The position numbers were made by a program, and so were the translations under genes. The notes below the pieces were generated by a model that did not search any database, was not told the origin of the DNA, and saw only the letters and a list, made by a program, of their open reading frames with translations. Source: a virus (Duplodnaviria; Caudoviricetes). Taken from it: a DNA stretch of 64,000 nucleotides. The stretch is from IMG/VR virus record IMGVR_UViG_3300014031_000001, positions 32,001 through 96,000 of that record. One strand, 5' to 3'. This document shows, piece by piece, positions 9,109 through 64,000 of this stretch (within the stretch, counting starts at the first letter, position 1; each line of letters starts with the position of its first letter).

Positions 9109-10350
9109 ATGGAAGAGACGCTCAACTCCTGCCAGATCGCCGCCAACGTCGCCATGCACAGTCCGCGCAACGTCTTCCTGACCGGCGCCGCCGGCACCGG
9201 CAAGAGCTGGCTCACCCGCCACTACCTCTCCTCGCGCGCCATGGAAGACTTTCCCGTCGTCGCCTCCACCGGCGCCGCCGCCATCCTGGTCGGAGGCCGC
9301 ACCTTCCACAGCTTCTTTGGGCTCGGCGTCTCCGGCCGCTCGGTCGCCCGTATGGTCGAGGCGGCCTGCCGGCGCCAGGACGTCGTGGAGCGCATGCAGC
9401 GCGTTTCGGGGATTCTGATCGACGAGGTGTCGATGATCCCGGGGCGCCTGCTCGACACCGCCGAGTGGATCGCCCGGCGCGCCCGGCACGACAAGCGCCC
9501 CTGGGGTGGCCTCAAGATCATCGCCGTCGGCGACTTCCGCCAGCTGCCGCCCATCGCCCGCGGCTCGGAAGCCAAAGACTGGGCGTTCCTATCGGAGGCC
9601 TGGGGCGATAGCGAGTTCGTGCCAGCCATGCTGAAGACGCCCGTACGGACGCCCGACCCGGTGTTCTTTCGCATCCTAAACCTCGTGCGCGCCGGCGTCA
9701 TCAACCAGGAGGTCAAAGACGCCCTCGACTCGCGCGTCTGTAAGCGCGTCGACGACTTCGACGGCACGCGCCTTTTCGCCTACAAGGGCGAGGTCGCCCT
9801 CTTCAACGAAGACCGCCTGGACGAGCTTTCGGGCGAGCCCACGTGCTTTCCCACCACCTACAAAGGAGACCCGACCGAGCTTGAAGCGCTGAAAAAGAAC
9901 GTCCCGATCCCCGAGGTGCTGCGCCTAAAGATCGGGGCGCTCGTCATGGTTCGCAAGAATTACGCCGATGCGGGCCTTGTGAACGGCACGCTCGGCCACG
10001 TCATCGAGATCAAAAGGGACCTCGTTTTCTTGGAACTCCTCTCCGGATCTGGCAAAGTGATAGCGTTGGGCCCCGACGCCTTCAACGTGGTGGACGACCA
10101 CGGCAAGCCGATAGCCACCGCCACTAACTTTCCTCTTTCGCTCGCCTGGGCTACGACCATCCACAAAAGCCAAGGCTGCACCTTGGACCGCGTGTTGGTC
10201 GACGTCAGCTCCCTCTGGGAGCCCGGCCAAGCCTACGTGGCGCTGTCGCGCGTCAAGACGCTCGACGGCCTACACATCTCTCGCTGGCACCCGCGATCCA
10301 TCAAAACCGACGCGGCTGTGACAGAATTTCACAAGCGCATCTTTGGGTGA
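9109..10350 (+). CDS. PIF1/RecD-like superfamily 1B DNA helicase
   Basis: GAAGTGKS, ASTGAAA, IDEVSM, GDFRQLPP, AWATTIHKSQG, GQAYVALSR. Confidence 0.93.
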   Translation: MEETLNSCQIAANVAMHSPRNVFLTGAAGTGKSWLTRHYLSSRAMEDFPVVASTGAAAILVGGRTFHSFFGLGVSGRSVARMVEAACRRQDVVERMQRVSGILIDEVSMIPGRLLDTAEWIARRARHDKRPWGGLKIIAVGDFRQLPPIARGSEAKDWAFLSEAWGDSEFVPAMLKTPVRTPDPVFFRILNLVRAGVINQEVKDALDSRVCKRVDDFDGTRLFAYKGEVALFNEDRLDELSGEPTCFPTTYKGDPTELEALKKNVPIPEVLRLKIGALVMVRKNYADAGLVNGTLGHVIEIKRDLVFLELLSGSGKVIALGPDAFNVVDDHGKPIATATNFPLSLAWATTIHKSQGCTLDRVLVDVSSLWEPGQAYVALSRVKTLDGLHISRWHPRSIKTDAAVTEFHKRIFG

Positions 10351-10361
10351 GGGGATCAGTC

Positions 10362-10700
10362 ATGCAGAGCGTAAGCGCCGACTTGGCGCATTTTTTGGAC
10401 TCGTTCAGTTTGGAAGCCCTGGTAGAGGCGAAGCTCCGCCGCGAAGCCCGTCAGCCGGGGGCGCTCGCGCCGGACCGCGAGCTCCACCGCCGGGTGATGG
10501 GGGCCGTCGAGCGCCCTTTGATGCGGATCGTCCACGAGCACACGAACGGCAACCAGGTGCACAGCGCCGCAATTTTGGGGCTGAACCGTACGACGGTGCG
10601 CAAGAAAATGCATCAACACGAGGTGATCGTCTGCCGCCCCCTAGCGGGTTTTACCGCTCGAGGTCAAGACAAGGGACCGGGCTTAAATTTGCCAAGTTAA
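10362..10700 (+). CDS. Fis-like HTH protein
   Basis: VERPLMRIV...TNGNQVHSAAILGLNRTTVRKKM matches the Fis/NtrC HTH. Confidence 0.8.
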   Translation: MQSVSADLAHFLDSFSLEALVEAKLRREARQPGALAPDRELHRRVMGAVERPLMRIVHEHTNGNQVHSAAILGLNRTTVRKKMHQHEVIVCRPLAGFTARGQDKGPGLNLPS

Positions 10701-10755
10701 TAAGAACTAGGTATTACCGTCGGGTTCGACCCCTTTCATGGGAGGAGGGCCAGTG

Positions 10756-11166
10756 ATGTCTTGCCGGAACCTGCGAGTACTCGTTGTCGAGGGGGACCCC
10801 CTTCTGCGCGCCACCTACGGGCGGCTGCTGAAAGGTCTGCGCGTCTACGACCACCAGGAAGTGGAGTCCGGAGCGGAGGCGCTCGGCGCGGCGGTCTATT
10901 TCCGCCCCGACGTCGTCATCGTGAACCTGGCGCTGTCGGCGGAGATGGGGGGCCAGGAGGTGCTAGAGCGCCTGCGCGGCAGCCCGCTGTTCGACCGCAC
11001 GGCCATCGTCGCCGCGACGCCGATGGTTCGGTGGATGCGGCGGGCGCCGTGCATCACCACCTTCGACGACGTCCTGGCGACGCCCCTTTCAGGGCAAGCC
11101 CTAGTCGGCCTGCTCGAGCGCGAGGCCGGCCGCCGGCGCGTGCTCGGGGAAGCCCTGGCGATATGA
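10756..11166 (+). CDS. Single-domain response-regulator-like (pseudo-receiver) protein
   Basis: RVLVVEGD, SGAEAL, PDVVIVNL, MGGQEVLERLR; Asn at the phospho-Asp position and no KP lysine. Confidence 0.7.
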   Translation: MSCRNLRVLVVEGDPLLRATYGRLLKGLRVYDHQEVESGAEALGAAVYFRPDVVIVNLALSAEMGGQEVLERLRGSPLFDRTAIVAATPMVRWMRRAPCITTFDDVLATPLSGQALVGLLEREAGRRRVLGEALAI

Positions 11167-27039: not shown

Positions 27040-30000
27040 TTAGGCCTGCGGCACACGCGGTGCCGACGGACCTTTGTTTCTTTCGACCAGCTTCTGACCT
27101 GCTGCGAGGACAGCCTGATCAAACAAACCACCGACAATCTTGCCGGGGAGTGCCGACGATCCGCGCGCGAAGGCCAGCGGCCACACGAGCGCCTGCGTCA
27201 ACACGTCCTCGACCGCTGCCACCTTGGTCAGGGAGGAGGAGCTTGCCCACCGCTTGGCAAGGTCGACGCCTTTGCTGCCCATCGTGCGCAGCGCGGGGCC
27301 GACCTTCTGCAGGTGCGGGTGTGTTCCCTTCCCTCTCAAGTGCAGCATTGCATCGGCAATCAGAGCACCGCTAACGACGTCGGGGTTCAAACGGAAAAAC
27401 CGCTTGAGTTGGCCCTCTTCTTCGTTGGGGTTGAGCTCTCGATGCTTCTGCAACATCCCTGAACCTACATAAGCCCCGACAGGGCCTATAATCAGCCGAT
27501 TCATCAAAGGTGAGCTTGGAAACGCCACCTTATACATCGGCTTTTGCTTATGCTCTTCGATCCGGTCGTAGACGTCTTTGTTGGTGTCGGGGCTCTCGAC
27601 GCCGGGCTGCGCGTACTGCCCTTTCGCCTTGTCGCCCACGATTTTATTGAAAATAGCCGCAAGGCCGATGCCAAGCGCGGCCGCAAGCGGCGCGTGCTCT
27701 CCAACGACTTTATCGATACCGGACAGCGCCTCGCGCGGACCGCTCTTTGCTGCTGCGGCGTAAAGGCCAGCAGCAAGCATCATCATTGGCAATAGACCTA
27801 TGGGTTTTCTTTCCCGTTCATTATTGTCCGCGGCGAGCTTTTCCTCAAGCGCCTTGGCGTTCGTGGCGTTGATGAATGTCGGCAGAGGCTGGCGCGCGCC
27901 GCCCTCTTTGATCAGAATAAAAAGCCGCTTGCCAAGCGGCGGGGCGAGGTAGCTGCGATCGGCCAGAAACGGCTGCAGCAGCGAGAAGATCGATGGGTCA
28001 AAGCGCCGGTAGTCCATACCGACAGCTTGCGTCTGTGCCAGCGTCGGCTCGTCGACCAGCCCGGGGTCAAAGCAGCAGCCCATCTGGTCGAGCTGATCGG
28101 CCAGGCCGGGGCGCCCCATCTTGCGCAGGACGATCCTCTGAAACTCTTGGGGTTTCAAAAGCATGCCGCTCAGGGCGGTCGTGGACAGCAGCTCCGGCAG
28201 AGGCGCGCGCGCCAGCTGGTCCAAGGTCTGGCGCGGCAGGGAGGGCTCGTAGGACTTCACCTCGCGGATGCCGTCGGCCAGATCCTTCAGCGCCTCCTGG
28301 CTGAAAGGCGGCTCGTCGGCCGGGATCTCTTTTTCGATCGTCGCGGCCTTGTCGGCCACCGCCATCTTCTCGGCCAAAAGCGCGGAACTCGGCACGATGA
28401 CGCCCCCGGGGGTCGAGGTGTGCGCCACCTTCATCAAAGTCTTGGCGATGCGGTCGGCGCCGATGAAGACGATGCTGATATCGTGAAAGCGCGGGAACGT
28501 GTTGAGGACGTAGACGACCTTGTTGTACTTCGGGTGCCAGCGGCCAAGGTAGTAGCGGGCGCACTCGCAGTACTGCTTTCTCGTCGGCGCTTTGTTGCCG
28601 CAGCAGTTACAGACGTCGTAGGGGACGCGGCAGTTGTGCAGCGCGACGCCGTTGACCACGTACGAGTCGCTGTCGTAGGTTTCCGACCTAATGGCGACGT
28701 TGTAGACCGGCTCGTCGCAGACCTCGGTGCTGATCGCCACGATGGGGGACCAAAGATGTCCGTCGTAGATAAAGCGGTGGTTTTTCACCATTTTATTGGG
28801 GCCAGCGAGCTTGCGCGTTTTAAACGAGTAGCCCTTGAGCGCCGGCGCGGTGTCGCGCCCGACCCAAATCTGGTACTCGACCGTGTCCTTAAAGACCGCG
28901 GTCGAGGGCTTGTGCAAGTTGACGTTCATGGACGAGATGCAGCCTAGGCGCAGCAGCACCATCTGCACCTGGCCAGCCAAGTGGCGGTTGCACGTCGAGA
29001 AGTAGACGGCGTCCTTGTAAACGCCCCCGTCGCCGTCACAGTAGGCGCCAAGCAGAATCTTCTGGGACTCAACGTCCCAGCGCATAGCGGTCGCCGACAG
29101 CCGTTTCGTGCCGGCACCCCGCCCGGCGTGAGTGTCCACGTAGCGCGCGAGCGCTTTGTCGTAGATGTTGATCCTGGCGGCGTTGGTACTGTTGGTGCGG
29201 GGCGTCCACTTGATGCTCACGTCGGGAAAGTACGACGCCAGCTTATCGAGCAGCTGGCCCTCCGCCGCATTGACGTTAAGCTCGATATAGCCATCGGCGG
29301 TGATGTGCCCTTCAGCCAGGTAAAGGCCGAGAAGGTACGCCATCCTAGGCTCGGGTACTTCGCTGATCCCTTGAATCACCGGGGTGGCCACGTAGTCGCC
29401 CAGCTCAAGCTCGGCCGCGGGCTTCCACACCTTGGCGTACTGCCGCGCTTCTTCTGGGCAGGCGACGCAGCCCTTTTTTTGGCCCCTGTTTGGCAGGCAC
29501 AGGTTGATACGCCGGCTTTTGTTGTTCGGATTACCCGAGCACTCCGTCTCCTTGGCGGGGATGACAAGCCACGGGTGCTCTTCCGTCGTGGGCTCGAGCT
29601 CGGCACTGTGCATGCCTAACACGGTGACGTGGTACCACGTGCCCTTGTGGTGGTGGCTGTGGGGGTAGTCGACCTCAGAAATCCCACCGAGGCCGTTAAC
29701 CACGCGGTCGCCAGGTTGCAGCTCGGACACAGCCCTCGACGTGAAGTCTTCCAGAAGCACCGGAGCGTCGGCGCGTAAGCAGCCCATCGACCAATCTGGA
29801 TACTCGCCGTGCTCGATCTTTTTCACGACGTCGAGCGAGCCGGCGTTGTCCAAAAGGACGATCAGCTCGACCCGGTGATAGGTCGGGTTGTAGACGGCGA
29901 GCGCGACGGTGCCGAAGCTCGCGGTCGGGTCCTTGTTGACGTGGTGCTTGTAGATTTTGGCGTTGGTCTCGAACGTGCGAAAGCCGTACTGGGGGCCGTC

Positions 30001-30243
30001 AAAGGCCAGGCCCGCCTCGGTGAAGTAGTCGCCATTGACGTTGTGGCCCCACCACTCTCCGGCGCCAAGTGCGGTGATCAGTAGCTGCGTCTTGCCCTTG
30101 ATGGGCTTGGCGGCGTGGATGTAGGCGGCGATCGTCGGGTGATACTCGGCAGCCGTCTTCTCCAGAAAACGATGCTCGGCGTCGATCACGTAGGTGAAGA
30201 CGCCGCGGTCGGTCTTGCCGGGGAAAAGAAGGAGCTTATCCAT
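27040..30243 (-). CDS. Prohead maturation protease, intein-containing
   Basis: NVNGDYF, KHHVNKD and WSMG|C (His/Ser of herpes/HK97-like head proteases); Cys cluster after the intein; heads the capsid operon. Confidence 0.7.
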   Translation of the reverse strand: MDKLLLFPGKTDRGVFTYVIDAEHRFLEKTAAEYHPTIAAYIHAAKPIKGKTQLLITALGAGEWWGHNVNGDYFTEAGLAFDGPQYGFRTFETNAKIYKHHVNKDPTASFGTVALAVYNPTYHRVELIVLLDNAGSLDVVKKIEHGEYPDWSMGCLRADAPVLLEDFTSRAVSELQPGDRVVNGLGGISEVDYPHSHHHKGTWYHVTVLGMHSAELEPTTEEHPWLVIPAKETECSGNPNNKSRRINLCLPNRGQKKGCVACPEEARQYAKVWKPAAELELGDYVATPVIQGISEVPEPRMAYLLGLYLAEGHITADGYIELNVNAAEGQLLDKLASYFPDVSIKWTPRTNSTNAARINIYDKALARYVDTHAGRGAGTKRLSATAMRWDVESQKILLGAYCDGDGGVYKDAVYFSTCNRHLAGQVQMVLLRLGCISSMNVNLHKPSTAVFKDTVEYQIWVGRDTAPALKGYSFKTRKLAGPNKMVKNHRFIYDGHLWSPIVAISTEVCDEPVYNVAIRSETYDSDSYVVNGVALHNCRVPYDVCNCCGNKAPTRKQYCECARYYLGRWHPKYNKVVYVLNTFPRFHDISIVFIGADRIAKTLMKVAHTSTPGGVIVPSSALLAEKMAVADKAATIEKEIPADEPPFSQEALKDLADGIREVKSYEPSLPRQTLDQLARAPLPELLSTTALSGMLLKPQEFQRIVLRKMGRPGLADQLDQMGCCFDPGLVDEPTLAQTQAVGMDYRRFDPSIFSLLQPFLADRSYLAPPLGKRLFILIKEGGARQPLPTFINATNAKALEEKLAADNNERERKPIGLLPMMMLAAGLYAAAAKSGPREALSGIDKVVGEHAPLAAALGIGLAAIFNKIVGDKAKGQYAQPGVESPDTNKDVYDRIEEHKQKPMYKVAFPSSPLMNRLIIGPVGAYVGSGMLQKHRELNPNEEEGQLKRFFRLNPDVVSGALIADAMLHLRGKGTHPHLQKVGPALRTMGSKGVDLAKRWASSSSLTKVAAVEDVLTQALVWPLAFARGSSALPGKIVGGLFDQAVLAAGQKLVERNKGPSAPRVPQA
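28633..29781 (-). mobile_element. Intein with LAGLIDADG endonuclease in the protease (383 aa)
   Basis: Starts CLRADAPV; TEEHP block B; LLGLYLAEG and LLGAYCDGDG; ends VALHN|C. Confidence 0.92.
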
Positions 30244-31589: not shown

Positions 31590-32506
31590 CAGAGGGCCCG
31601 AATTTTCTGACCCATGATGTGCAGGCGGTCGTCGATCGTTTGGTAGCGCTCACGGTGGAGATTCAAGGCGGCGCTGTAGCCGTGGTAGGTCTTGAGCGTG
31701 ATGTAGAGCGGGTGCTCGCCGTTCACGACTTCGGCGGGCAGGAAGCCGCTGATGAGCTCCTGGGGGGCCTTCTGGTCGGCGGTCTTCGTCAAGAAGAACT
31801 CGACCACCTGGTTGCCAAGCCGTGGCTCGACGAGGCCTTCCCCCTTGAGCACGTGCGCTAGCTTGCCAAGCGCCGGGCGCGCCAGGTCGGCCATGCCGGC
31901 CGCCTTCGTCATGTGATAGACCGTGCCGAGAAGCGACGTGCGCTCGGGGCCGCTGCCGCCGGAGAGGACCACCTGGCGGGCCTCCTTGATGAAGGCGCGC
32001 TCGGCGGCCAGACAGGCCACCTCGGCCTTGTAGACGGCGTCGCCGGCGCGCTGCTTGTCGAAGGCGACCTTCTCGGAGCGCTGGCGCAGCTCGCGCTTGA
32101 CGCCGGCCGTCTTGTCCATGAGTTCGGGCTCGACGCCGAACATCTCAAAGGGCGACGGGTTTTTGTCGCTGAAGACCGGGTCAGGCATCGCCATCGCGAT
32201 CTTCTGCGAGCCGCCGTCGACCTGAAGGCCAGCGATCACCGCCGTGGCGTCAGCCAGTGGGAAGTGCGCGGCGTGGTACTTCGACTCGTCGTTGGCGTAC
32301 TTGTGCTGGTGGATCAGCTTATTCGCTTCACCGGCCAACAGCTGCACTTGCTCGGGCGTCAGGTCTTCCGACTGCGCGATCTTGGTGAGGCTCGTCGTCG
32401 GCTCGGTCCCCTGCGTGAGGTAAGCGCTGGCGATCGATCCCGCCCACTCGCGGAAATGCTCCATAGAGAGCTTTTGCTCTGTGAAAGAGCTAGCGTCGAA
32501 AAACAT
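31589..32506 (-). CDS. Virion head-associated protein, first gene of the head operon
   Basis: TKIA, QKIA, DKTA, EKVA, IKEA, TKAA; LTPEQVQLLAGEAN. Confidence 0.65.
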   Translation of the reverse strand: MFFDASSFTEQKLSMEHFREWAGSIASAYLTQGTEPTTSLTKIAQSEDLTPEQVQLLAGEANKLIHQHKYANDESKYHAAHFPLADATAVIAGLQVDGGSQKIAMAMPDPVFSDKNPSPFEMFGVEPELMDKTAGVKRELRQRSEKVAFDKQRAGDAVYKAEVACLAAERAFIKEARQVVLSGGSGPERTSLLGTVYHMTKAAGMADLARPALGKLAHVLKGEGLVEPRLGNQVVEFFLTKTADQKAPQELISGFLPAEVVNGEHPLYITLKTYHGYSAALNLHRERYQTIDDRLHIMGQKIRAL

Positions 32507-44354: not shown

Positions 44355-47300
44355 CTAGTACATCGGCCCGCCCTCGATCTGGGTGTAGCGCCGCGACTTG
44401 CCGTGGAAGATGTCGGCCGCGAGCTTGCAAAAGAGCAAGCTGTGGAAAAAGTCATCAGGGTCCGAGGGCCGGTGGTCAAATTTAATCTCCCGGCGGAACT
44501 CGTTGTACTCCGTGTAGATCGACAAAATGTCCTTGGCATACGGCTCGAACTCTGCCCACTTCGGAAAACCGACGTGGCCGTTTTTCATGTCGTAGAAGAG
44601 CTCCGACATGAAAAGGTTGCGGTGCAAGTGGTAGCGCGTGCCGAGCGCGTCCCACTTGATGCGGTTTTTCAGCTTGTGCAGATACTGAAACTGCATGACG
44701 CGCTTCGGACCAAGCTTGCGCACGAGCACGTTGTTGAGGCCCCAGCCGTGGCCGTAGTCGACCCCGAGCACACGCACGCCTAGTCCGGCCGAGATGCGGC
44801 AGATGTCGTTGACGACGTGCTCGGGGTCAACCTCGCGGCCGACGTACTTCTTCACGAGCACGGTGCGAAACTTCCGCTGCGTCTCGTAGTAGCCGAGCGT
44901 GAGCACCGTGTAGGAGGCGTTACGGATCTTGCCGCTCGGGCTCTTCTCTGAGCCGTCGTTGCCCTCGCCCCAGTCGACGCCCCCGATCAGCACGCGGCTG
45001 CGCGCGTCGGCCAGATAAGGCGTCAGGTTGTTGGGGTCCCAGAGGGCGTAGTCGCCGCAGATCCCCATCAGCGCCGCTCGGCTAATCGGCTTTGACGCGG
45101 CGTCGTAGGAAAGCCCAAGCACCTCATTGGCGAACTGCCCGAAGGGGTAGTGGTCTCTCTTCCAAAGCAGCCGCGACCACTGCGACATGGTCGAGATGAT
45201 CCAGGGCACCATGAGCTGCGGGATGCGGTAGCCGGCGATGGCCTTGCCGCCCGACAGCGACATCCACTGGCCTTTCGTCACGTCAAGCGGGCGCACGCAC
45301 TTGGAGCAGACGGGGCCGGGCGGCAGGCGCCCCGACTCGTACCACTGCGTCGGCCCGATCGTCGTCTCGTCGAGCATGTTCCAGTGGCCGCAGCCGCATG
45401 GGACGAGCCACTCGTTTTGCGTCGAGCTCTGCCAGTAGATCTCGATCGGGTTGTCGAGGCTCTTTGGCGTCCCCGCCATGATCTCGATGGCGTCAGGAAA
45501 GTGCGACGTGCACTCGCGGATGACCGGGATCTCCGAGATGAGCATGTCCTGGAACTCGTCGAGCGCCAGCACGCGCGCCGAGATCCCGCGCGCTCTGTCG
45601 GCGCTGCGAAAGGCCGAACGCAGGAAGATGAAGGCGCCGTTGGTGAAGCCCTTCTCGAAGACCTGGTTACTGACGCCGGAGTCCTGCAGGTACTTCATGA
45701 TCAGCGGCGACTTCTCGATCGCCGGCTTCAGCTTCTCGGACGAAAACTGCCGCGTCTGCGTGTGCGACGGCGACACGTAGAGGCACTTGTTGAAGGGCTT
45801 GACGGCGCTGATGGCGACGAGGTTGTTTGCGAGGAATGTTGTGTTGTGGTTGAGGATGAAGTCCGCGACAAAGGTCTCGGTCTCGGTCTGGATGCCCCAG
45901 GTGGGCTGCATGCCGAGGTCTTCGATGGTGACTATCTCGTCCCAGATGACGTCGGACTCAAGAATCGCCGCCAACGCGCCGCTCTCAAGCTCGACGTTCA
46001 TCGCTGCGACTTTTTCATAGGTCGGGCAGTAGCTGCGGTTCACCCGCAATCCGGCCGACTGAAAGCCGTTGCGCTGCCAGTAAGTGCCGCGATCTTTTCT
46101 GGCCTGCAGAATGAACTCGTGGATTTCTTTTGGGAGGGTGTCGAGGTTGCTGTTGGCACGGCACGTCGACAGGGTGAAGGGCTTACCTGGAATAGGACCG
46201 AGCTCGCGGTGGAAACACGCAACAGCACGCCGCGTGATGACGCGAATATTGTAGGCGAGGCGGCCGCCGTTGCTTAGTTTGTTTTCGCGCTGGACCGTGA
46301 CCACCCCAAACTTGCGCAAGAGGAGCCGCACCTGCCGCGCCAGCACCGGGCTCGTCGTGCAGTAGACGAGGTCTACTTTGGAGCTCGAAACATTTTTGCA
46401 GTGGCCGTCGGTGGCCCATAGGCCACGAAGAAGATCCCGCGTCGTCTCTTTGTCCCAACCAAAGACCTCGGCCGGGAGGTGCTTCTCGCGGGCGCAGGTG
46501 TTGGCGATGCCGCGGTCGCGAAACCAGACGGCAAGTGGCCCCTTTAGGCTAAACGCGTAGCGCTTCGTGCCCGACCGCTCGTCGATCCAGGTGCGCGAGG
46601 GGCGGTCACCGGCGAGCTCGAGCAGACGGTCGGCCCAGGCGTTGACCTCGTCGCCCTTTTGCGTGAACCCGAAACTACTGCCGCCCGCCTTGTGCCGGTA
46701 GTAGTGGCCATCGCCCACCAGCAGCCCGAGAAGGGCCGCCCAGGAGAGGCGCGCCGTGCCGAAGGTCCCGACCGTGCGCAGGGCGGCGACGCGGTCTCCA
46801 GGCACCAGCCTGCCCGCCTCAACCCAGCCATCAAAGCGACGCAGTGGGTGATTGAGGGTCACCTCGAGCGTCGACCCAAGCCGCGTCCTTAGGCGCACGC
46901 ATCGCCGCGGCCCGTTGTCCTCGGAGGCGACGACGGTGTCGACCGCCTGGTGGCCGGCCGCATCGATGGCGATGACAGTGTCGCCGACGGTCATCTGGTC
47001 GATGGGCTTTTCGGAGCCATCCGACAAGGTGCACTGGCTAGACGCGACTAAACATTTTTCGACCTGCCTGGCCGTCTTCAAGAGGATGCGCTGATCGGAG
47101 CGGTCGTAGATCGGCTCGAGGTAGCGGCGCCCCGTGAAGTCGAACTTCTTGCCGTCGAGATGGATCAGGTTGTGGACGAAGGCCGACTTGCGCGCGCGGA
47201 TCAGTTTGCGCACCGTGCCGTCGTCGTTGAAGAGCTCGTTGATGCGGGCGGCGTGAAGAGCCGACGGCAGCTGCAGATCCTTCTCGTCGGTGTAGTCGTC

Positions 47301-47384
47301 GGCGTCGCGACCCTCGAGCTCGGCGAGCTCGTCGGGATCTAAATGGTCAGTGATGACCATGCTGTTCACATTAGAGTCAGTCAA
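44355..47384 (-). CDS. Terminase large subunit, intein-containing
   Basis: KTARQVEK|TT Walker A, RARGISARVLALDE Walker B, GTPKS, GVDWG nuclease motif, PDDFFHS. Confidence 0.88.
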   Translation of the reverse strand: MTDSNVNSMVITDHLDPDELAELEGRDADDYTDEKDLQLPSALHAARINELFNDDGTVRKLIRARKSAFVHNLIHLDGKKFDFTGRRYLEPIYDRSDQRILLKTARQVEKCLVASSQCTLSDGSEKPIDQMTVGDTVIAIDAAGHQAVDTVVASEDNGPRRCVRLRTRLGSTLEVTLNHPLRRFDGWVEAGRLVPGDRVAALRTVGTFGTARLSWAALLGLLVGDGHYYRHKAGGSSFGFTQKGDEVNAWADRLLELAGDRPSRTWIDERSGTKRYAFSLKGPLAVWFRDRGIANTCAREKHLPAEVFGWDKETTRDLLRGLWATDGHCKNVSSSKVDLVYCTTSPVLARQVRLLLRKFGVVTVQRENKLSNGGRLAYNIRVITRRAVACFHRELGPIPGKPFTLSTCRANSNLDTLPKEIHEFILQARKDRGTYWQRNGFQSAGLRVNRSYCPTYEKVAAMNVELESGALAAILESDVIWDEIVTIEDLGMQPTWGIQTETETFVADFILNHNTTFLANNLVAISAVKPFNKCLYVSPSHTQTRQFSSEKLKPAIEKSPLIMKYLQDSGVSNQVFEKGFTNGAFIFLRSAFRSADRARGISARVLALDEFQDMLISEIPVIRECTSHFPDAIEIMAGTPKSLDNPIEIYWQSSTQNEWLVPCGCGHWNMLDETTIGPTQWYESGRLPPGPVCSKCVRPLDVTKGQWMSLSGGKAIAGYRIPQLMVPWIISTMSQWSRLLWKRDHYPFGQFANEVLGLSYDAASKPISRAALMGICGDYALWDPNNLTPYLADARSRVLIGGVDWGEGNDGSEKSPSGKIRNASYTVLTLGYYETQRKFRTVLVKKYVGREVDPEHVVNDICRISAGLGVRVLGVDYGHGWGLNNVLVRKLGPKRVMQFQYLHKLKNRIKWDALGTRYHLHRNLFMSELFYDMKNGHVGFPKWAEFEPYAKDILSIYTEYNEFRREIKFDHRPSDPDDFFHSLLFCKLAADIFHGKSRRYTQIEGGPMY
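45843..47054 (-). mobile_element. Intein with LAGLIDADG endonuclease in the terminase Walker A (404 aa)
   Basis: Starts CLVASSQ; TLNHP block B; LLGLLVGDG and LLRGLWATDG; ends ILNHN|T. Confidence 0.92.
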
Positions 47385-54507: not shown

Positions 54508-55023
54508 TTGAATACTGCGGAGCTAAGTCAACGAATTGCAGAAAAAGCTGGCTTCACCCGTGTGCAAGCTAAGCGCGCCGTGGTCTCGGTCATTGCCGAG
54601 ATCCAAAATGAGGTTCTTGCGGGCCACAAAGTGACGCTGTCGGGATTTGGCACCTTCGAAAAGGTGACACGCCGCGCTCGCCAGGGCCGCAACCCCTACA
54701 CCGGCGAACCCGTTGCAGTGCCAAAACGCGCAGTCGCGCGGTTTCGCCTAGGTAAGAATTTCAAGGACGCGCTGAACAGCCCAAGACACGGAGAAGACAA
54801 GTTGAAAAAGACCACCAAGAAGAAGACGAAAAAAGTGAAGGCCGCCGGCAAGGCGAAGGCCAAGCGCACCCCGGCGAAGACGGCGGTCGCCAAGCGGGCG
54901 CCGGCGAAGAAGGCAGCGTCGTCGATCAAGCCCGGCAGTAAGAAGGTCGCCCGCAAGGTCGCCAAGAAGAAGAAAGCGACGGGCCGCATCGGTCGCCCGC
55001 CGGCAAAAAAGAGCAAGAGCTAA
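54508..55023 (+). CDS. HU/IHF-family protein with a histone-H1-like Lys/Ala tail
   Basis: VTLSGFGTFEK..R.ARQGRNPYTGE, then about 75 aa rich in K and A. Confidence 0.9.
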   Translation: MNTAELSQRIAEKAGFTRVQAKRAVVSVIAEIQNEVLAGHKVTLSGFGTFEKVTRRARQGRNPYTGEPVAVPKRAVARFRLGKNFKDALNSPRHGEDKLKKTTKKKTKKVKAAGKAKAKRTPAKTAVAKRAPAKKAASSIKPGSKKVARKVAKKKKATGRIGRPPAKKSKS

Positions 55024-56706: not shown

Positions 56707-56964
56707 ATGAGTCGGAAGTTATTTGTGGCGAAGCTCCCCTACGACATGACGGAAGCGGAGCTGCGCACGACGTTCGAGTCGTTCGGCACCTTGAAGTCGG
56801 TGCGCGTCATCATGGACCGCGACACCAAGACCTCCAAGGGCTTCGGCTTCGTCGAGTTCGAAAGCGACATCGATGCCGCGCGCGCCATTACGGCGCTCGA
56901 CGGCGCGCAGGCGGGCAGCATGAAGCTCGTTGTGAAGCCTGCCGAAGAGCGCGGCGCCCGCTAG
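56707..56964 (+). CDS. RRM (RNP-1) RNA-binding protein
   Basis: RNP2 LFVAKL and RNP1 KGFGFVEF. Confidence 0.92.
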   Translation: MSRKLFVAKLPYDMTEAELRTTFESFGTLKSVRVIMDRDTKTSKGFGFVEFESDIDAARAITALDGAQAGSMKLVVKPAEERGAR

Positions 56965-58055: not shown

Positions 58056-61000
58056 TCAATATTTTCCGTCCTTGCCCTGTCCGAAGGTGGCTCCGTGTGC
58101 GAAGGCAGGGATCGGGTGCGTTCCGGCAAGGTCAGTTTTCCAGCCTTGTGCCGCGCCCTCGGTGATCGCCTTCGACAGGTTCTGGAAGCCCAAAGCCGCC
58201 ATCCAGTTTTGCCGCATGAGCGGCACCGAGCCCATGCCCTTCATCAAGGGGGCATGCTTCAGCGGCTCGCGCCGGACCGAGATCTCTGCGTGTCCGTGCG
58301 ATTTTAGAACTTTTGCGTCGCGCGCGTCCACCACGTGGCCCTTCTTCAAGTCCTCATAGTCGGCGTCGAGCTCGTAGCCGATGGCGTCTTCCGGCTTGGC
58401 CGTGAAGCCGAGGTTGGCGTTGTAGTGGTTGGCGACCGTGTAGCCGATGACGTCGCCCGGCAGGTGCGGGCTGTCCTTGGGGCTGTTGAGCACCTGGGTG
58501 AAGTTGCCGAGGCTGCGGACGACCGTCTCGAACATCTTGCGCTCGATGCGGATGCCCTGGTCCTTGTAGGTCTTGTGGAGCTCGTCGACCAGGTACTCCT
58601 GGGCCGGGCGCATGCCCTTGAGCTTCACGAGGTCTTGGGGCTTCACGGCGCCGTCGGAAAGGACGTCGCCCTTGGTCACCTCGTCGCCGACCTTGACGGT
58701 GAGCTTGCGGCCGACGGGTACGTAGATTTTGTGGCTGCCGACGAAGACGTTGTGGCCGCCGCCGATGCCCTTATCGATGCGCTCCACCTTGCCGCCGACG
58801 GGCGTCAGGGGGGCGGCCCCTGGCAGGTCACCCGGCATCTTCAGAAGCTGGCCGATGCGCGCGTAGCCGCCAACGTCGGTGCCGGTGCCCGCAGCGCCCC
58901 CCGTGTGGAAGGTGCGCATGATCATCTGGACGAGCGGCTCCGAGATGGTCTGGCTCGCCTTGGCGCCAATGTTATCCCCGATGGCAGGCGCACCCCCGTG
59001 CTCATCGTGTCCAAAGCACTTGGCGCAAGTTCCTCGGGGCTGAAGGCATGTGAGAGGGGAGCGAACCTCGATTTTAGAAACGCCCCTCTTTTGAAGCGCA
59101 CTGACCAGCTGCTGGTCGACAGGGGTATTACGCGCGACGCCGTCTTGATCGTGGGCCAGGTAGCGCCCCACTGCATCAGGACTGGAAATGCCGAGGGTAA
59201 TACCCGCTTTAACGCCACAGTCCACCGCCGTGATGACGTTGTCTAGCGTGGTGGCCGAAATCGATTTCGAGAAGGCCCCGGGCTCACTTGTTTGGATGGC
59301 TCTGTCCATCATACCACGGCGCGCACCGTACATACTTGTCCAGTAGTCGCCGATATTTAGCCCTTCTGAATAGGACTTTTTGATGGCGCGCGGGACGATC
59401 TTGCCGCGTGCGTCGGAGACGAAAAGCGGGGTCGCCATGATCTGGCGCAGCTGGGTCGGCTCGCCGCGGCCGCCGCCTTCGACCATGTCGAAAAGCGAGT
59501 TGCCCGTGCCGCGAAGCTTCGTCGCGAGCATGCGGTCCAAAAGCCCGACGGCGTCCTTGTTGATCTTGGTGAGGTCGGCCTCGGTCTTGGCCTTGGCGAG
59601 CTCCTTGTCGACGTGCGTCGTGATGAGGTCGCGGCTTTTGCTAAAGTCGTGCAAGTCGTCGAGCCCGAGCGAAAAGCCCTTCTCGTAGGAGTGCGTCTCG
59701 CCGGCGCTCTTGAGGGCCTGGAGGACTTTGGCGAAGTCGCCTGACGGCAGCTCTTTGGCCATACGGTTAAGCATGGCAGCCGTACCTTTTTTGTCGAGGA
59801 CGGCGGTGACCTTGTACTTTTCGCCGACGATAGCGTCGAGCTTGGCGCGCCCTGCGGGGGTCTGCGACAGGTAGAAGATCCCCGTCTGCGCTTCCCAGGC
59901 GGGCGCCATCATCAGAGCGCCGCTGCCAGGCTGGAAGAGGTTGCGCGACGGCAGCATGCCCTCGGCTTCCTTGTTGGCCTCGTTGCTGATCGGCACGTGC
60001 ACCGTCATGGTGTTATGCGTCAACAGTCCGTTCTGGATGCAGAAGATCTCGCCATCCGGCACGGTGAAGTCGAACATTACCTCGTGCCGTGGAACTTCAG
60101 TGATCGACGTCACCTCCTCCCAGAGCAGATCTTCGTTCAGGACGAGCTGAGCCCACTTCTCGAAAAGTCCTGAAGCCAACATGCCGTACGTGTGGAGAAT
60201 ATCTTTAGCGATGTGTCTCGAGATGAAGTGCGTTTTTTTCTTGAAGTGGTCATGTAGATTGACTCTGCGTCCAGGAACCGCCTCTCGCCAGGCTGCAATC
60301 TTCGCGCGCAGCTCCTTGTTCGGGACCCGGAGCTCCTTCCCGATTTCTGCTATTTCGTCAAACAGCGCAGCGCTGAAAGGAACGATGTCGTAGAGATTTT
60401 TACGTCGGCGCCCCGCTTTGACTTCGCAGGCTGTCTTCAGAAGCTCGGATTTACGCCCCTCTTTCAGGGCCAGTCTGTGCATATCGTCTTTGACAACGCG
60501 CACTATTGCGAAGTCGCGGCAGCCCTTGTGCTCGCTGTCGCGGATATAGGCGCCTATCCCGACGCTAGCCATGATGAAGCGAAGCGCCTCAAGAAAGGGG
60601 CGGTTCTTCATCTCAATGCGGGCGAGCCAGTTGCCGAGCGCATCCTTGCCGATGCTGCCTTCTGCCTGAAAGAGGCCCTGCACATAGGCAAGCCGTACGC
60701 TGTCGGGGCTTGAGACGATGCAGTCGGGAACTCGCTTGTCCTCGCACCGTGCCCCGCACTCGTCTGCGAACCAGGCAGCGATCGTTTTGTTGTAGATGCG
60801 GGCAATACAGCCGGCATGCTTGGCCGTGCTCTGTCGTTTTGTGTCCGAGTTGAAGACTGCCTTGATTGTCCGACAGCTCCGGTCGAGGAGGGCGCGCTCG
60901 GTATCGCAGATAGTGACGGTGTTGTCTGCGCTACACCCATCGCCAGCATAGTGGCCCAGGAGCCAAGCGAAATCTTCATCTACGACGTGCGACTTTTCCC

Positions 61001-64000
61001 CGATTTTTACGCTCTGTATGTCCTGCCCGAGCCTCGGCCGTGCTTTTGGGAGCAAGACCCCCGCGGGCATAACTTCTGTTTTGACGCACTGAAGGTTGAA
61101 CTTCTCGTCGATGTAGCTGAAGTTGTGGTGCTCGGTAGCGACGACGCGCGTGCCGGTGTGCGTCTCGAGCTGGTAGCACGGCCCGTGCGATGTATGCACG
61201 GTAAGTCTGCGCACGTCGGCCCAGATGGGGGTGCTGTTGACCATAGAGATCGTCTGCAGGCGGCCTGGCGAGAGTTCGTAAATAGCTGTGTAGCCCCCGG
61301 CGTCTGCCACCATGTCCTCCACGCTCTTGCCGACAAGGAGGGGGAATAGCTCCCCCGCGCGGAGACTTAGGTACACCCACTGTCCGTCGTCTGTCAACAG
61401 GCGAGTGTGGCACAACGTGCTGATATCGCAGCTGTCTCCATTGAAGTCAGCGTTGAAGCCTTTGATTACCAACGGCGGAATCTTCAGCGCACGCCCCGTC
61501 GTGATCTTCGGCTTGAACGCCATGATCGAAAACTTGTGGAGCGACGGCGCGCGGTTTAGAAGGACGTGGCGGTCTTTCATGACGCGGTCAAGCGCCGTGC
61601 GTGCGAGCTTCGTGCGCCCCTTCACCTCTTCGGTGGCGGCCAGCGGGCTTTTGCCGTGGCCCTTCAGCTCGCGGATGACGAACGGCTCGAAGAGCTTCCA
61701 GGCCATCTCTTCGGGCATCGCCATCTCGTCGATGCCAAGGTCAGGCTCGGGGATGATCGTGCCGCGGCCGACAAGATCCTGCTTTTTGGAGAGCAGCTTC
61801 GAGATGAAGTAGCCCTCTTTCGGCTGCCCACCGTCGGCGCCGCCCTTGATGGCGGCGATGAAGCCGTCACGCGTGCGACCCTTGACGTTGAGGTTCGTGA
61901 GCCCCGAGACGGCCGACACGTGGTCGTAGAGCTCCTTGCGGATGTCGGCCTTCTCGGTCTCCGGCAAGAGCTTGGCGCCCGGCAGCTGGGCCACGTAGTT
62001 GACGACGCCCGTGTTGTGGTAGAGGACGTTGATGTCGCTCGTCGTGACGTTGCCGTCGGGCAGCGGGTAGAGCGGGCGAAACTGCGGCGGGATCACCGGC
62101 AGCTTCCTGCGGATGTAGGCGTCTTCCGGGCGCAGGTTGAGCCGCACCAGGTTCTTTAGGATCTTCAACTTCTTGTTGATGTCGTCGAGCTTGTCGGCGC
62201 GCACCGTCTTGGCTTTTTCCTCGAGACGCGTGATGGCGCCCGCGACGTCGACGCCCTTCAGGATCGACTCGATCGCCTCGCCCGAGGTGAGGCCCACGCC
62301 CGTCTCGTTGAAGGTCTTGGTCTTGGGGTCCAAGAAGAGCTTGCCCGCCATGATCTTGTCGTAGCGGCTGCCGAGGTCGGTGATCTTCTTGACGGCGTCT
62401 TCGAAGACGGGGTTCACGACGGCGTGCGCCAGGTCCAGGTGGGACCACTTGTCGCCCTGGAAGCCGCCGAGCTTTTGGTGATCGAAGAAGCCACCCTTGA
62501 CCGGCACGAAGTCTTTGGCGCGGAAAAACTGCGGGTCCTTGATCGCCATGACCGAGATCTTCTCGACGTGCTTATCAGTGAGCGGCCCGAGCGTCAGCTC
62601 CGTGCCGTTCTTCTCGACGTCGACGCCCGCAGCCTTCAGGTAGTTCAGAAACTTGGTGTAGGCGAACGTCTGGCGCGGCGCCGGCACCGGGTCGCCGACC
62701 TTGAGGGCCCGCCAGAACTCCTCGTTCTGGTCGCTCTTGTAGGTGGCCATCTCGCGCAGGTTGTGGCGCGCGCCGTGGGCCAGCATGGCGTTCATCGTGA
62801 GCACGTCGAGGGCCTTGGCCCCCTCGGCGCCGCCGGCCTTCAGCGGCTGGTGGTTGCCGTCGTAGGGGTGGCCGCTGCCGCCCTGGCGCACCGAGTAGTT
62901 GTGGGTGCCCTGCTTGTAGAGCTTCAGGATGTAGGGGTTGCCGACGTGGACCTTGCCGAGGCTCTTGCCCGTCGCGGCGTCGAAGAGCTCCTCTTTGTCG
63001 AGAACCCCCGACTTCTTGAGCTTCTGGCGCGTCGTGTCGAGGTAGTTCTCGCCTGAGAAGTTGTCGACGACGTGGGGCTTGCCGTCCTTCAGCGCGGCCT
63101 TGCCGGCGGCCGACTCGTAGATCTGGCCGATGTTGATCCGGCTGATGACGCCGTGGGGGTTCAGCAACATATGGACGGGGTTGCCCGCCTTGTCCTTCGG
63201 CGCCTCGCTGTCGGGGATGATCTTGGTGATGATCCCCTTGTTGCCGTTGCGGCCCGCGATCTTGTCGCCGATGCGCGCGCGTTCTTCGGTCTTCACGTAG
63301 ACCAGGATCTTGTCTTTGCGCTTTTGGACGTCCATGACGTAGCCGGTGTCTTCGTAGTGCCAGTAGACGGAGACGTCGCGGGGCCTTTCCGACAGGGCCT
63401 TGTTGATGACGGCGATGACCTGGCTTGGCGGGCGCTGCTTGAGCGCCGCGACGAGGATCGTGCCCTGCGTGACCTTCGAGCCCTTCTTGATGACGCCGTC
63501 TTCGTCCAAAAGCTGGGCGTTCGCCGGGGTCAGCTGGCTCGGGTAGGTGGCGCGAAACTTCGCCAGGTTGAGCTGGATCGTGACGTCGCGGTCGATCGCT
63601 TCCTTGTGGACGTGCTCGCTTGTGAGCTGGTCGGCCCCCGAGTTGGTGATGACGACGCCGTCTTCGAAGTTGAGGCCCTTGTAGGGCAGGTAGGCGACGC
63701 GCATGTTGGTGCCGAGCGCGAGCGTGCCGTTTTTGCTGAAGTTGCTATCGGCGAGCAGGTCGCCCTTGGCCACCTTGTCGCCGACTTTGACCTTCACCTC
63801 GTGGTTGAGAAAACTTTTCCGGTTGAGCGTGAAGTTGTTGTATAGGTTCACCTGCTTGTCGCCTGACGGTGTCGCCAGCACGAGAAAGTCGGGGGTCACC
63901 TTTTTTACCGTGCCGCTGTCGGGCGCCATCGCCGCGACCGAGCCGCCGATCACCTCCTCCATCGAAGCCCCGGGGGTCGCGCCGACTTGGACGAGAGGCG
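58056..64000 (-). CDS. Multisubunit-type RNA polymerase, beta-beta' fusion (5'-truncated by the window), intein-containing
   Basis: Beta motifs PLVQVG, NFEDG, GDKIAGRNGNKG, NPHGVISRINIGQ, YILKL; beta' motifs PVIPPQFRP, LLNRAPSLH, NADFNGD, GARRG..D.A..T, RSPLTC..CAKCFG, SEP..Q..MRTFHTGG. Confidence 0.93.
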   Translation of the reverse strand, partial: PLVQVGATPGASMEEVIGGSVAAMAPDSGTVKKVTPDFLVLATPSGDKQVNLYNNFTLNRKSFLNHEVKVKVGDKVAKGDLLADSNFSKNGTLALGTNMRVAYLPYKGLNFEDGVVITNSGADQLTSEHVHKEAIDRDVTIQLNLAKFRATYPSQLTPANAQLLDEDGVIKKGSKVTQGTILVAALKQRPPSQVIAVINKALSERPRDVSVYWHYEDTGYVMDVQKRKDKILVYVKTEERARIGDKIAGRNGNKGIITKIIPDSEAPKDKAGNPVHMLLNPHGVISRINIGQIYESAAGKAALKDGKPHVVDNFSGENYLDTTRQKLKKSGVLDKEELFDAATGKSLGKVHVGNPYILKLYKQGTHNYSVRQGGSGHPYDGNHQPLKAGGAEGAKALDVLTMNAMLAHGARHNLREMATYKSDQNEEFWRALKVGDPVPAPRQTFAYTKFLNYLKAAGVDVEKNGTELTLGPLTDKHVEKISVMAIKDPQFFRAKDFVPVKGGFFDHQKLGGFQGDKWSHLDLAHAVVNPVFEDAVKKITDLGSRYDKIMAGKLFLDPKTKTFNETGVGLTSGEAIESILKGVDVAGAITRLEEKAKTVRADKLDDINKKLKILKNLVRLNLRPEDAYIRRKLPVIPPQFRPLYPLPDGNVTTSDINVLYHNTGVVNYVAQLPGAKLLPETEKADIRKELYDHVSAVSGLTNLNVKGRTRDGFIAAIKGGADGGQPKEGYFISKLLSKKQDLVGRGTIIPEPDLGIDEMAMPEEMAWKLFEPFVIRELKGHGKSPLAATEEVKGRTKLARTALDRVMKDRHVLLNRAPSLHKFSIMAFKPKITTGRALKIPPLVIKGFNADFNGDSCDISTLCHTRLLTDDGQWVYLSLRAGELFPLLVGKSVEDMVADAGGYTAIYELSPGRLQTISMVNSTPIWADVRRLTVHTSHGPCYQLETHTGTRVVATEHHNFSYIDEKFNLQCVKTEVMPAGVLLPKARPRLGQDIQSVKIGEKSHVVDEDFAWLLGHYAGDGCSADNTVTICDTERALLDRSCRTIKAVFNSDTKRQSTAKHAGCIARIYNKTIAAWFADECGARCEDKRVPDCIVSSPDSVRLAYVQGLFQAEGSIGKDALGNWLARIEMKNRPFLEALRFIMASVGIGAYIRDSEHKGCRDFAIVRVVKDDMHRLALKEGRKSELLKTACEVKAGRRRKNLYDIVPFSAALFDEIAEIGKELRVPNKELRAKIAAWREAVPGRRVNLHDHFKKKTHFISRHIAKDILHTYGMLASGLFEKWAQLVLNEDLLWEEVTSITEVPRHEVMFDFTVPDGEIFCIQNGLLTHNTMTVHVPISNEANKEAEGMLPSRNLFQPGSGALMMAPAWEAQTGIFYLSQTPAGRAKLDAIVGEKYKVTAVLDKKGTAAMLNRMAKELPSGDFAKVLQALKSAGETHSYEKGFSLGLDDLHDFSKSRDLITTHVDKELAKAKTEADLTKINKDAVGLLDRMLATKLRGTGNSLFDMVEGGGRGEPTQLRQIMATPLFVSDARGKIVPRAIKKSYSEGLNIGDYWTSMYGARRGMMDRAIQTSEPGAFSKSISATTLDNVITAVDCGVKAGITLGISSPDAVGRYLAHDQDGVARNTPVDQQLVSALQKRGVSKIEVRSPLTCLQPRGTCAKCFGHDEHGGAPAIGDNIGAKASQTISEPLVQMIMRTFHTGGAAGTGTDVGGYARIGQLLKMPGDLPGAAPLTPVGGKVERIDKGIGGGHNVFVGSHKIYVPVGRKLTVKVGDEVTKGDVLSDGAVKPQDLVKLKGMRPAQEYLVDELHKTYKDQGIRIERKMFETVVRSLGNFTQVLNSPKDSPHLPGDVIGYTVANHYNANLGFTAKPEDAIGYELDADYEDLKKGHVVDARDAKVLKSHGHAEISVRREPLKHAPLMKGMGSVPLMRQNWMAALGFQNLSKAITEGAAQGWKTDLAGTHPIPAFAHGATFGQGKDGKY
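60012..61433 (-). mobile_element. Intein with LAGLIDADG endonuclease at the RNAP catalytic loop (474 aa)
   Basis: NADFNGD|SCDIST...; ATEHH block B; LLGHYAGDG and YVQGLFQAEG; ends LLTHN|TMTVHVP; visibly lower GC. Confidence 0.9.

Follow-up and report, generated by a model that had tools for sequence, protein, structure and literature searches.

Multisubunit RNA polymerases (RNAPs) bind their catalytic Mg2+ in a loop of three aspartates, a triad that ranks among the most invariant features in biology; in E. coli it consists of Asp460, Asp462 and Asp464 of the beta' subunit, within the motif NADFDGD. Here we describe, from a soil phage, a gene for a fused beta-beta' RNAP in which this loop reads NADFNGD and is followed directly by an intein of 474 amino acids (aa), which we call type A. 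The gene lies in a 64,000-nucleotide stretch (positions 32,001 to 96,000) of the Caudoviricetes record IMGVR_UViG_3300014031_000001; that whole stretch is referred to as the window. Like class 1 LAGLIDADG inteins, the insert is in frame, occupies a conserved active-site loop, and has Ser1, a Thr-x-x-His motif, a terminal His-Asn, Thr+1 and two LAGLIDADG motifs. Unlike them, type A is strictly tied to the substitution of an invariant catalytic residue of its host, at position -3 of the intein. The polymerase shares its double-psi-barrel domains and the position of the loop with cellular and phage multisubunit RNAPs, the latter including the mReC lineage (PMC7481178) and jumbo-phage RNAPs (PMC7598289); it differs from all of these in that the middle Asp is Asn.

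A role for flanking residues has precedents. In the Sce VMA, Pho RadA and Npu DnaE inteins, as in our reading of type A, flank residues tune the N-terminal reactions by way of block B (PMC4031507 and PMC4513877). The flanks of those three inteins are the normal residues of the host, whereas the residue that type A appears to need replaces a conserved metal ligand and travels between hosts. We found no description of a link between an intein and a triad Asn in the literature covered, a coverage that left out most subscription journals and supplements. The word 'intein' is absent from a study of phage multisubunit RNAPs (PMC7481178), and an account of intein-rich crAss-like phages (PMC7886860) leaves polymerase triads unmentioned. 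The phenomenon is real, widespread and apparently undescribed in print.

The substituted loop and its intein

In the minus strand, the stretch from 61454 to 61431 runs aac gct gac ttc aat gga gac agc and encodes N-A-D-F-N-G-D-S. The original prediction, a note made from the letters of the window, had reported NADFNGD in place of NADFDGD, and the codons bear it out exactly. The window polymerase departs from the three-Asp pattern D-x-D-G-D in its middle residue, which is Asn. The AAT and GGA codons at 61442-61437 place this Asn before a Gly that is invariant among homologues of the loop.

An error of sequencing or assembly, in which AAT stands for a true GAT, had been among the explanations offered at first. 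The contigs of three sequencing runs showed zero differences over 61000-61900, at word depths of 12.6, 32.9 and 18.8; these contigs came from one study and possibly from the source samples, and rare variants are invisible at contig level. Run X4 spans just 61651-61752, with a diverged relative. Thirty-eight further protein clusters have the identical Asn, as do the viral loci of four relatives (L004, L005, L006 and L008), and it occurs in every relative with a type A intein. The Asn is genuine; these agreements refute the error explanation, to which we assign a negligible probability.

The borders of the intein were set from intein-free homologues. Such homologues (e.g. P0003 and P0011) have no insert and read NADFDGD-TMTVHVP; of the 119 homologues placed in the extein tree described below, 85 likewise lack an insert at the site. 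Because the intein-free sequences run straight from the loop into TMTVHVP, the intein was placed from Ser1 to Asn474, followed by Thr+1. The canonical splice product is therefore predicted to be NADFNGD-TMTVHVP, its junction peptide spanning ...GFNADFNGDTMTVHVPISNEANK; both this product and the position of the intein directly after the loop agree with the original prediction. Shifted borders that would restore DFDGD were considered and rejected, since the C-extein starts TMTVHVP as in the intein-free homologues and no D-G-D occurs at the end of the insert. Cys2 or Cys8 as the true nucleophile was rejected as well, since relatives carry Ile or Val at those positions and Ser1 alone is conserved.

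Conservation was assessed in the 36 members of the type A family for which both junctions were located. His103, Asp455 and Asn474 were each conserved at 100% and His473 at 97%; the +1 residue was Thr in 34 members, Ser in one and Cys in one. The codon for Ser1 differs by lineage (AGC, TCA or TCC). The insert scored above the Pfam cut-offs for Intein_splicing (38.9 bits; cut-off 35.8) and LAGLIDADG_3 (36.1 bits; cut-off 22.5). Among described inteins, PI-PkoII (PDB 2cw7) and the Thermococcus VMA intein (7qss) were weak matches (E = 7e-8 and 6.5e-5) that involved the endonuclease part only. By its site, Ser1 and Thr+1, blocks B, F and G, profile matches and mobility, the insert classifies as a class 1 LAGLIDADG intein, and it is predicted to splice.

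Distribution and ancestry of the asparagine

The original prediction had raised the question of whether DFNGD tracks the presence of an intein. It does so for one intein family only; other inserts at the site keep DFDGD. A search with the N-extein alone returned 120 homologues, seven of which read D-x-N-G-D, and all seven carry a type A intein (Ser1...[T]HN, then T). One further homologue reads DFDGN beside a different insert, and 112 have all three Asp, either without an insert or with other inserts. When the search was made with the intein alone, 13 polymerases were recovered and all 13 read DFNGD immediately before Ser, although their inteins are as little as 27% identical and their exteins differ greatly. 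A HMMER search with the intein alone against 1.84 billion representative proteins gave 889 matches; the best 150 of these included 28 polymerase loops reading D[FYH]NGD and then a type A intein. Triads are abbreviated here by their three residues, such that DND denotes Asp-Asn-Asp. The pooled set of 175 classified proteins comprised 39 DND with insert, 99 DDD without insert, 32 DDD with other inserts, three DDN with insert and two NDD with insert; not one Asn variant without an insert was present among the 175. The Asn is common to all 39 type A protein clusters, across intein identities as low as about 25%.

Intein-free alleles were also sought at the DNA level. A pattern scan of IMG/VR for an intein-free D[FY]NGD-TM allele of RNAP gave four matches, none of them an RNAP loop; the Asp control pattern gave at least 118 matches in IMG/VR, and nearly all of the 80 retrieved were polymerase loops. 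With a downstream Pro added, the intein-free D[FY]NGD-TM pattern had three matches in metagenome_contigs (241 million records), again none an RNAP loop. NADFNGD itself had at least 124 matches in genome_contigs, with no RNAP loop among the matches listed, many of which resemble calcium-binding repeat proteins (by appearance, not by family assignment). In IMG/VR, NADFNGD followed by Ser or Thr occurred at seven loci: four known relatives and three unrelated proteins.

The ancestry of the residue was examined with two trees. The extein tree was built from 119 rows, with 250 aa from each side of the site and the loop removed; it lost seven rows missed by the junction pattern (P0019, P0108, P0114, P0120, P0121, P0122 and P0126) and also excludes P0001 (a fragment of the window) and P0128 (a ribonucleotide reductase). 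On this tree the type A trait requires at least seven gains or losses, and well-supported branches force every one of them. P0045 and P0047, which have the intein and Asn, and P0052, which has no intein and Asp, are near-identical in their exteins, with branch lengths of 0.006-0.014. In the intein tree, built from 89 Ser1 or Cys1 inserts at the same site, the DND inserts form one clade of 36 with a support of 98, and a single change accounts for the trait. On the evidence of these trees the Asn follows the ancestry of the intein and not that of the polymerase; its evolutionary affiliation is with the intein. It is a clear case in which a selfish element dictates a residue in the active site of its host and takes it along to new hosts by co-conversion, with the state of that residue following the tree of the parasite rather than that of the enzyme.

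Recent movements of the intein left traces in the flanking DNA. Of about 2,009 extein residues, 37 distinguish P0045 from P0052, and 13 of these differences fall within -60 to +35 aa of the site (Fisher p = 4e-9). Between L004 and L005, both of which carry Asn, synonymous divergence (dS) is 0.006 in the intein and 0.20-0.27 in the extein. The two loci share a tract, intein included, that starts 39 nucleotides (nt) ahead of Ser1 and ends 16 nt beyond the first base of the codon for Thr+1; it holds only six base differences, all within the intein, and it takes in the Asn codon. An intein dS so far below that of the extein, together with the shared tract, points to recent homing with co-conversion. 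The inteins of the window and P0014 are 71% identical and the exteins 59%, and the GC content at third codon positions in the window gene is 0.92 and 0.83 in the two exteins as against 0.72 in the intein. Judged from the indirect evidence of dS, tracts and tree, the type A intein is mobile by homing, and these comparisons show its Asn codon being copied into newly invaded genes by co-conversion.

Selection on the asparagine and the workings of the polymerase

A variant that is copied with an intein need not serve it. The original prediction had offered a tolerated variant co-converted during homing; the co-conversion is upheld by the tracts of P0045/P0052 and L004/L005, and the idea of a mere passenger fails on the behaviour of the Asn column. 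Under pure hitchhiking, the Asn would be a neutral or mildly harmful founder mutation, dragged along by co-conversion and without a role in splicing. The location of the Asn codon within the co-conversion tracts fits this explanation, as does the codon itself: AAT is rare in the exteins of the window gene (AAC 57 times, AAT 3 times), recurs in the relatives L136 and L137/139/140, and is used in all three independent DNA lineages examined, as imported DNA would look. Against it, only the Asn column out of 120 flank columns is tied to the intein (10/10 versus 0/109; the next best column, 0.6 versus 0.15), and other flank markers are not. Over the 30.1 substitutions per site of the DND clade, there was zero change at the Asn, although one A-to-G transition restores Asp, and the residue in this clade is only ever Asn, with no other substitute. 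The lack of reversion among its 36 members extends to inteins that were kept vertically: P0123, P0124 and P0125 retain both intein and Asn with exteins 69-75% identical and inteins 55-64% identical. Since the Asn is the sole flank residue tied to the intein and is unchanged over about 30 substitutions per site, it was selected and is not a passive passenger. Hitchhiking is further opposed by Asp-bearing sister clades that differ in intein catalytic residues too, and by a second intein family in which an Asn is just as strict but occupies a different position of the triad (both described below), and we consider it quite improbable. These substitution patterns show that the Asn is held by selection.

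A possible object of that selection lies in block B of the intein. The sister inteins adjacent to DFDGD (five sequences in two clades) have Asp-His-Gly/Ser-Met/Leu in block B. In the Asn-linked clade this block is invariably His102-His103-Asn104-Phe105, and His102, Asn104 and Phe105 differ in all five sisters. One of these clades (P0160, P0167 and P0175), sister to that of the window's intein, ends in His-Gln (...THQ) rather than His-Asn and lies beside an intact DFDGD; the state of the triad therefore co-varies with the terminal residue of the intein. Residues of the extein and of block B jointly shape the N-terminal scissile bond, according to PMC4031507. From this interplay and the co-variation of block B, we infer indirectly that the type A splicing site requires the Asn in cis.

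The account that we lean towards, with little more than even confidence, is that the type A intein is co-adapted to Asn(-3) and carries it along by homing, and that the spliced enzyme transcribes with a DND triad. The Asn codon, 7-9 nt from the insertion point, is copied with the intein into each newly invaded polymerase gene. A block B with His102 and Asn104 close to the N-terminal scissile bond would fail beside a metal loop with three carboxylates, at -5, -3 and -1. The spliced polymerase would have DND, in which the side-chain oxygen of Asn would coordinate the catalytic Mg2+ without a charge, and its metal binding would probably be weaker; slow deamidation of Asn-Gly to Asp would be at most a bonus. 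Asn serves as a neutral ligand in the D-x-N-x-D loops that bind divalent cations in EF-hands and in integrin repeats, some of which read DFNGD. Those loops bind structural Ca2+, whereas the loop of the window polymerase is a catalytic Mg2+ site.

Several points weigh against this account. The co-variation of block B involves just five sister sequences in two clades. Inserts of type B, of type C and of the ...THQ clade occupy the same site and keep DFDGD, and thus an acidic loop is not incompatible with splicing per se. In cellular RNAP, substitutions in the triad cut catalysis about as much as deletion of the trigger loop does (PMC3105419). The Asn is never seen without the intein, so Asp is evidently preferred and function with Asn is not a safe assumption. 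The extein ratio of non-synonymous to synonymous rates (dN/dS) between the Asn-bearing L004 and L005 is 0.03, in a pair that includes a recent intein transfer, and part of its divergence may date from the Asp state; a dN/dS from an ungapped alignment of the window with L008 (54% identity, out of register) was discarded. Lastly, the gene is the sole beta' and sole beta match found in the source record, yet that record, of 118,652 bases, is estimated to be only 81% complete, and the phage may have a second polymerase.

The severity of triad substitutions in cellular RNAP and the incompleteness of the record would also fit a polymerase that does not work, either because the insert stays unspliced or because the Asn form is dead and the phage uses another polymerase. 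A search of the record for a single-subunit RNAP (PF00940) gave no match, and its control likewise gave none. Such a loss of function is at odds with the open reading frame (ORF), which continues for 2,484 aa without stops and past the right edge of the window, with the low extein dN/dS of Asn-bearing relatives, and with the conservation of every canonical splicing residue. The Asn moreover persists through 25-31% extein divergence, and 39 Asn clusters and 46 DFDGN clusters exist in nature. The loop flanks KGF...TMTVHVP and the beta NFED motif are both present in the window polymerase. We regard a non-working polymerase as very improbable: the evidence of an open frame, a low dN/dS, an intact NFED and an Asn kept through deep extein divergence says that this is a working gene. 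In seven independent matched pairs, column 1357, that of the Asn, was the only one to change in one direction in 7/7. We had considered second-site compensation elsewhere in the polymerase; given that no other column was consistent across the seven pairs, it was rejected.

Other insert families at the same site bear on what the Asn does. Type C inserts and a family that starts with Cys1 share with type A the insertion point after the third triad residue, the phage beta-beta' polymerases as hosts and a LAGLIDADG domain; they differ in the triad, which is DFDGD with type C, has Asn third in the Cys1 family (DFDGN, then C...[WYF]D, then T) and has Asn second in the window's family. The Cys1 family, found by a search with the insert of P0120, is large (P0120 and P0278-P0323) and ends in [W/Y/F]-Asp. 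All 46 of 46 members read D[FY]DGN before Cys1, which makes the Asn the -1 residue, followed by Thr; two distant members of the P0120 insert family that start with Ser-Cys keep DFDGD. In the intein tree, DDN is one clade of 44 rows with a support of 100 and 29 substitutions per site, and an IMG/VR scan for an intein-free D[FY]DGN-TM polymerase allele gave 15 matches, none an RNAP loop. In P0202 the Asn takes the first triad position and is followed by Phe. Since type A, the Cys1 family and P0202 have their Asn at different triad positions, neutralisation of one carboxylate beside an intein recurs, at a position specific to the family. Moving both borders of the Cys1 inserts one residue upstream would give DFDGD-TM at the sequence level, but no known splicing chemistry fits such borders. 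Type C inserts (L007:3865 onward; P0005-P0010, P0017, P0025 and others) begin with Glu, Gln, Asn, Asp, Ser, Tyr or Leu; they are nucleophile-less, have 'TDDDP' in place of the block B His, and end ...LSN before T, beside a DFDGD loop.

The recurrence of Asn, rather than of any other residue, could also reflect a masked aspartate, in line with the activation by deamidation that the original prediction had offered. The triad would then be completed post-translationally by deamidation of Asn to Asp, and full activity would be confined to the converted enzyme, as in a zymogen; the conversion could proceed through a spontaneous Asn-Gly succinimide, with assistance from the bound metal, or by coupling to splicing or removal of the intein. 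The Asn of the window polymerase precedes the invariant Gly and so sits in the context most prone to deamidation, and the residue kept in 36 lineages over about 30 substitutions per site is the one that can become Asp. That it never occurs without an intein is what would be expected if the conversion made Asn cost-free, and the lack of second-site compensation also agrees with such a conversion. The Cys1 family and P0202 speak otherwise, since their Asn precedes Thr (46/46) or Phe, contexts in which spontaneous deamidation takes weeks to months; the deamidation reading is weakened by them, and it would imply at least two origins, for two triad positions in two intein families. Even for Asn-Gly, the spontaneous reaction has a half-time of about one day and yields mostly isoaspartate, a poor fit to an infection cycle. 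An enzyme encoded by the phage was considered and rejected: PCMT (PF01135) was absent from the record in a search with a positive control, and Pfam identified no deamidase or repair family among the 71 window genes (of the record flanks, 12 larger genes were scanned, with PHROGs only). The Asn-Gly dipeptide is common to this loop and to the deamidation 'molecular clocks', but conversion in the window polymerase is hypothetical. We therefore think a masked aspartate unlikely, and prefer an intein co-adapted to Asn(-3) whose spliced host uses the Asn as it is.

In place of a near-universal Asp triad, these phages offer dozens of natural, selected Asn alleles (39 clusters at the second position and 46 at the third). 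If DND or DDN sites transcribe, the minimal requirements of a catalytic Mg2+ site would have to be revised. If the Asn is instead converted to Asp after translation, enzymes would have a mode of activation that is new, and in the form of a zymogen a mobile element would in effect impose the 'editing' of a catalytic residue at the protein level. Of practical interest are rules for intein splicing beside acidic, metal-binding junctions, and perhaps polymerases gated by splicing.

Features of the polymerase gene and the phage record

The positions of the features in the window are collected in Table 1.

Table 1. Polymerase, loop and intein features, by window position
Feature	Position	Strand	Remarks
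Gene for fused beta-beta' multisubunit-type RNAP	58056..64000	minus	ORF and Pfam; continues to record position 97510
Beta-subunit NFEDG motif	63657..63671	minus	Acidic pair, presumably near second metal site; intact
Catalytic Mg2+-binding loop NADFNGD (not NADFDGD)	61434..61454	minus	112/120 homologues D-x-D-G-D
Asn codon AAT	61440..61442	minus	Residue 1357 of full protein; intein position -3
Type A intein (474 aa), class-1-like, Ser1...His-Asn, embedded LAGLIDADG homing endonuclease	60012..61433	minus	
Ser1 codon AGC, N-terminal nucleophile	61431..61433	minus	Ser in 35/36 family members, Cys in 1/36
Block B TEHHNF (Thr100, His103)	61119..61136	minus	Thr100-Glu-His102-His103
First LAGLIDADG motif, LLGHYAGDGC	60933..60962	minus	Gly160, Gly164 and Gly166 conserved in family
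Second LAGLIDADG motif, YVQGLFQAEGS	60654..60686	minus	Glu258 in 33/36
Blocks F and G (VMFDFTVPDGEIF ... NGLLTHN)	60012..60080	minus	Penultimate His and terminal Asn
Asn474 codon	60014-60012	minus	Last residue of intein
Thr+1 codon	60009..60011	minus	First C-extein residue (TMTVHVP); same residue follows DFDGD in intein-free homologues

The polymerase ORF matched the Pfam families Rpb2_6 (3e-51), Rpb1_5 (4e-24), Rpb1_2 (4e-22) and Rpb1_1, and its beta and beta' parts are fused as one extein of 2,010 aa. The placement of NFEDG near the second metal site is one that we take over from bacterial RNAP. Among cultured phages, no relative of the polymerase exceeded 36% identity over the N-extein stretch. 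L005, L006 and L007 have an extra intein in the part of the polymerase that corresponds to beta, within the opening ~1,000 nt of each locus. It occupies the site ...HTPES/xKIG... (the slash marking the insertion point) and ends ...CGN or ...LGN before S; the window's gene is without it. A 13-residue duplication, missing from L004 and the window, stands in tandem in the N-terminal region of beta' in L005 and L006, a conserved part of the polymerase, where FQPVKGGFFDTRT occurs twice.

The phage genes of the record include those for a tail sheath, a major head protein, a large terminase, PolA, Pif1- and SNF2-type helicases and RNase HII. A Fis-type helix-turn-helix protein adjoins a response-regulator receiver domain (window 10347-11166, plus strand). 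The phage also encodes an HU-like DNA-binding protein (54508-55023, plus strand) and, close to the polymerase gene, a small RNA-binding protein with an RRM domain (56707-56964, plus strand).

Further inteins may be present in the same record. The large terminase (1,009 aa; window 44355-47384, minus strand) is split by an intein of its own, with Hint/Intein_splicing and LAGLIDADG_3 matches at residues ~105-514 and the terminase ATPase after them. A protein of 1,067 aa (window 27040-30243, minus strand), which belongs to no known family and has no PHROG match, contains LAGLIDADG_3 at residues 397-444; its gene probably has a structural or replication role and bears a further intein. Just past the right end of the window, a portal-like protein of 1,189 aa adjoins the polymerase gene (L012:2107-5676; record C1 99106-102675). 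Its residues 420-689 match PHROG 9666, as does the intein region of the terminase, and this protein likely holds a further intein.

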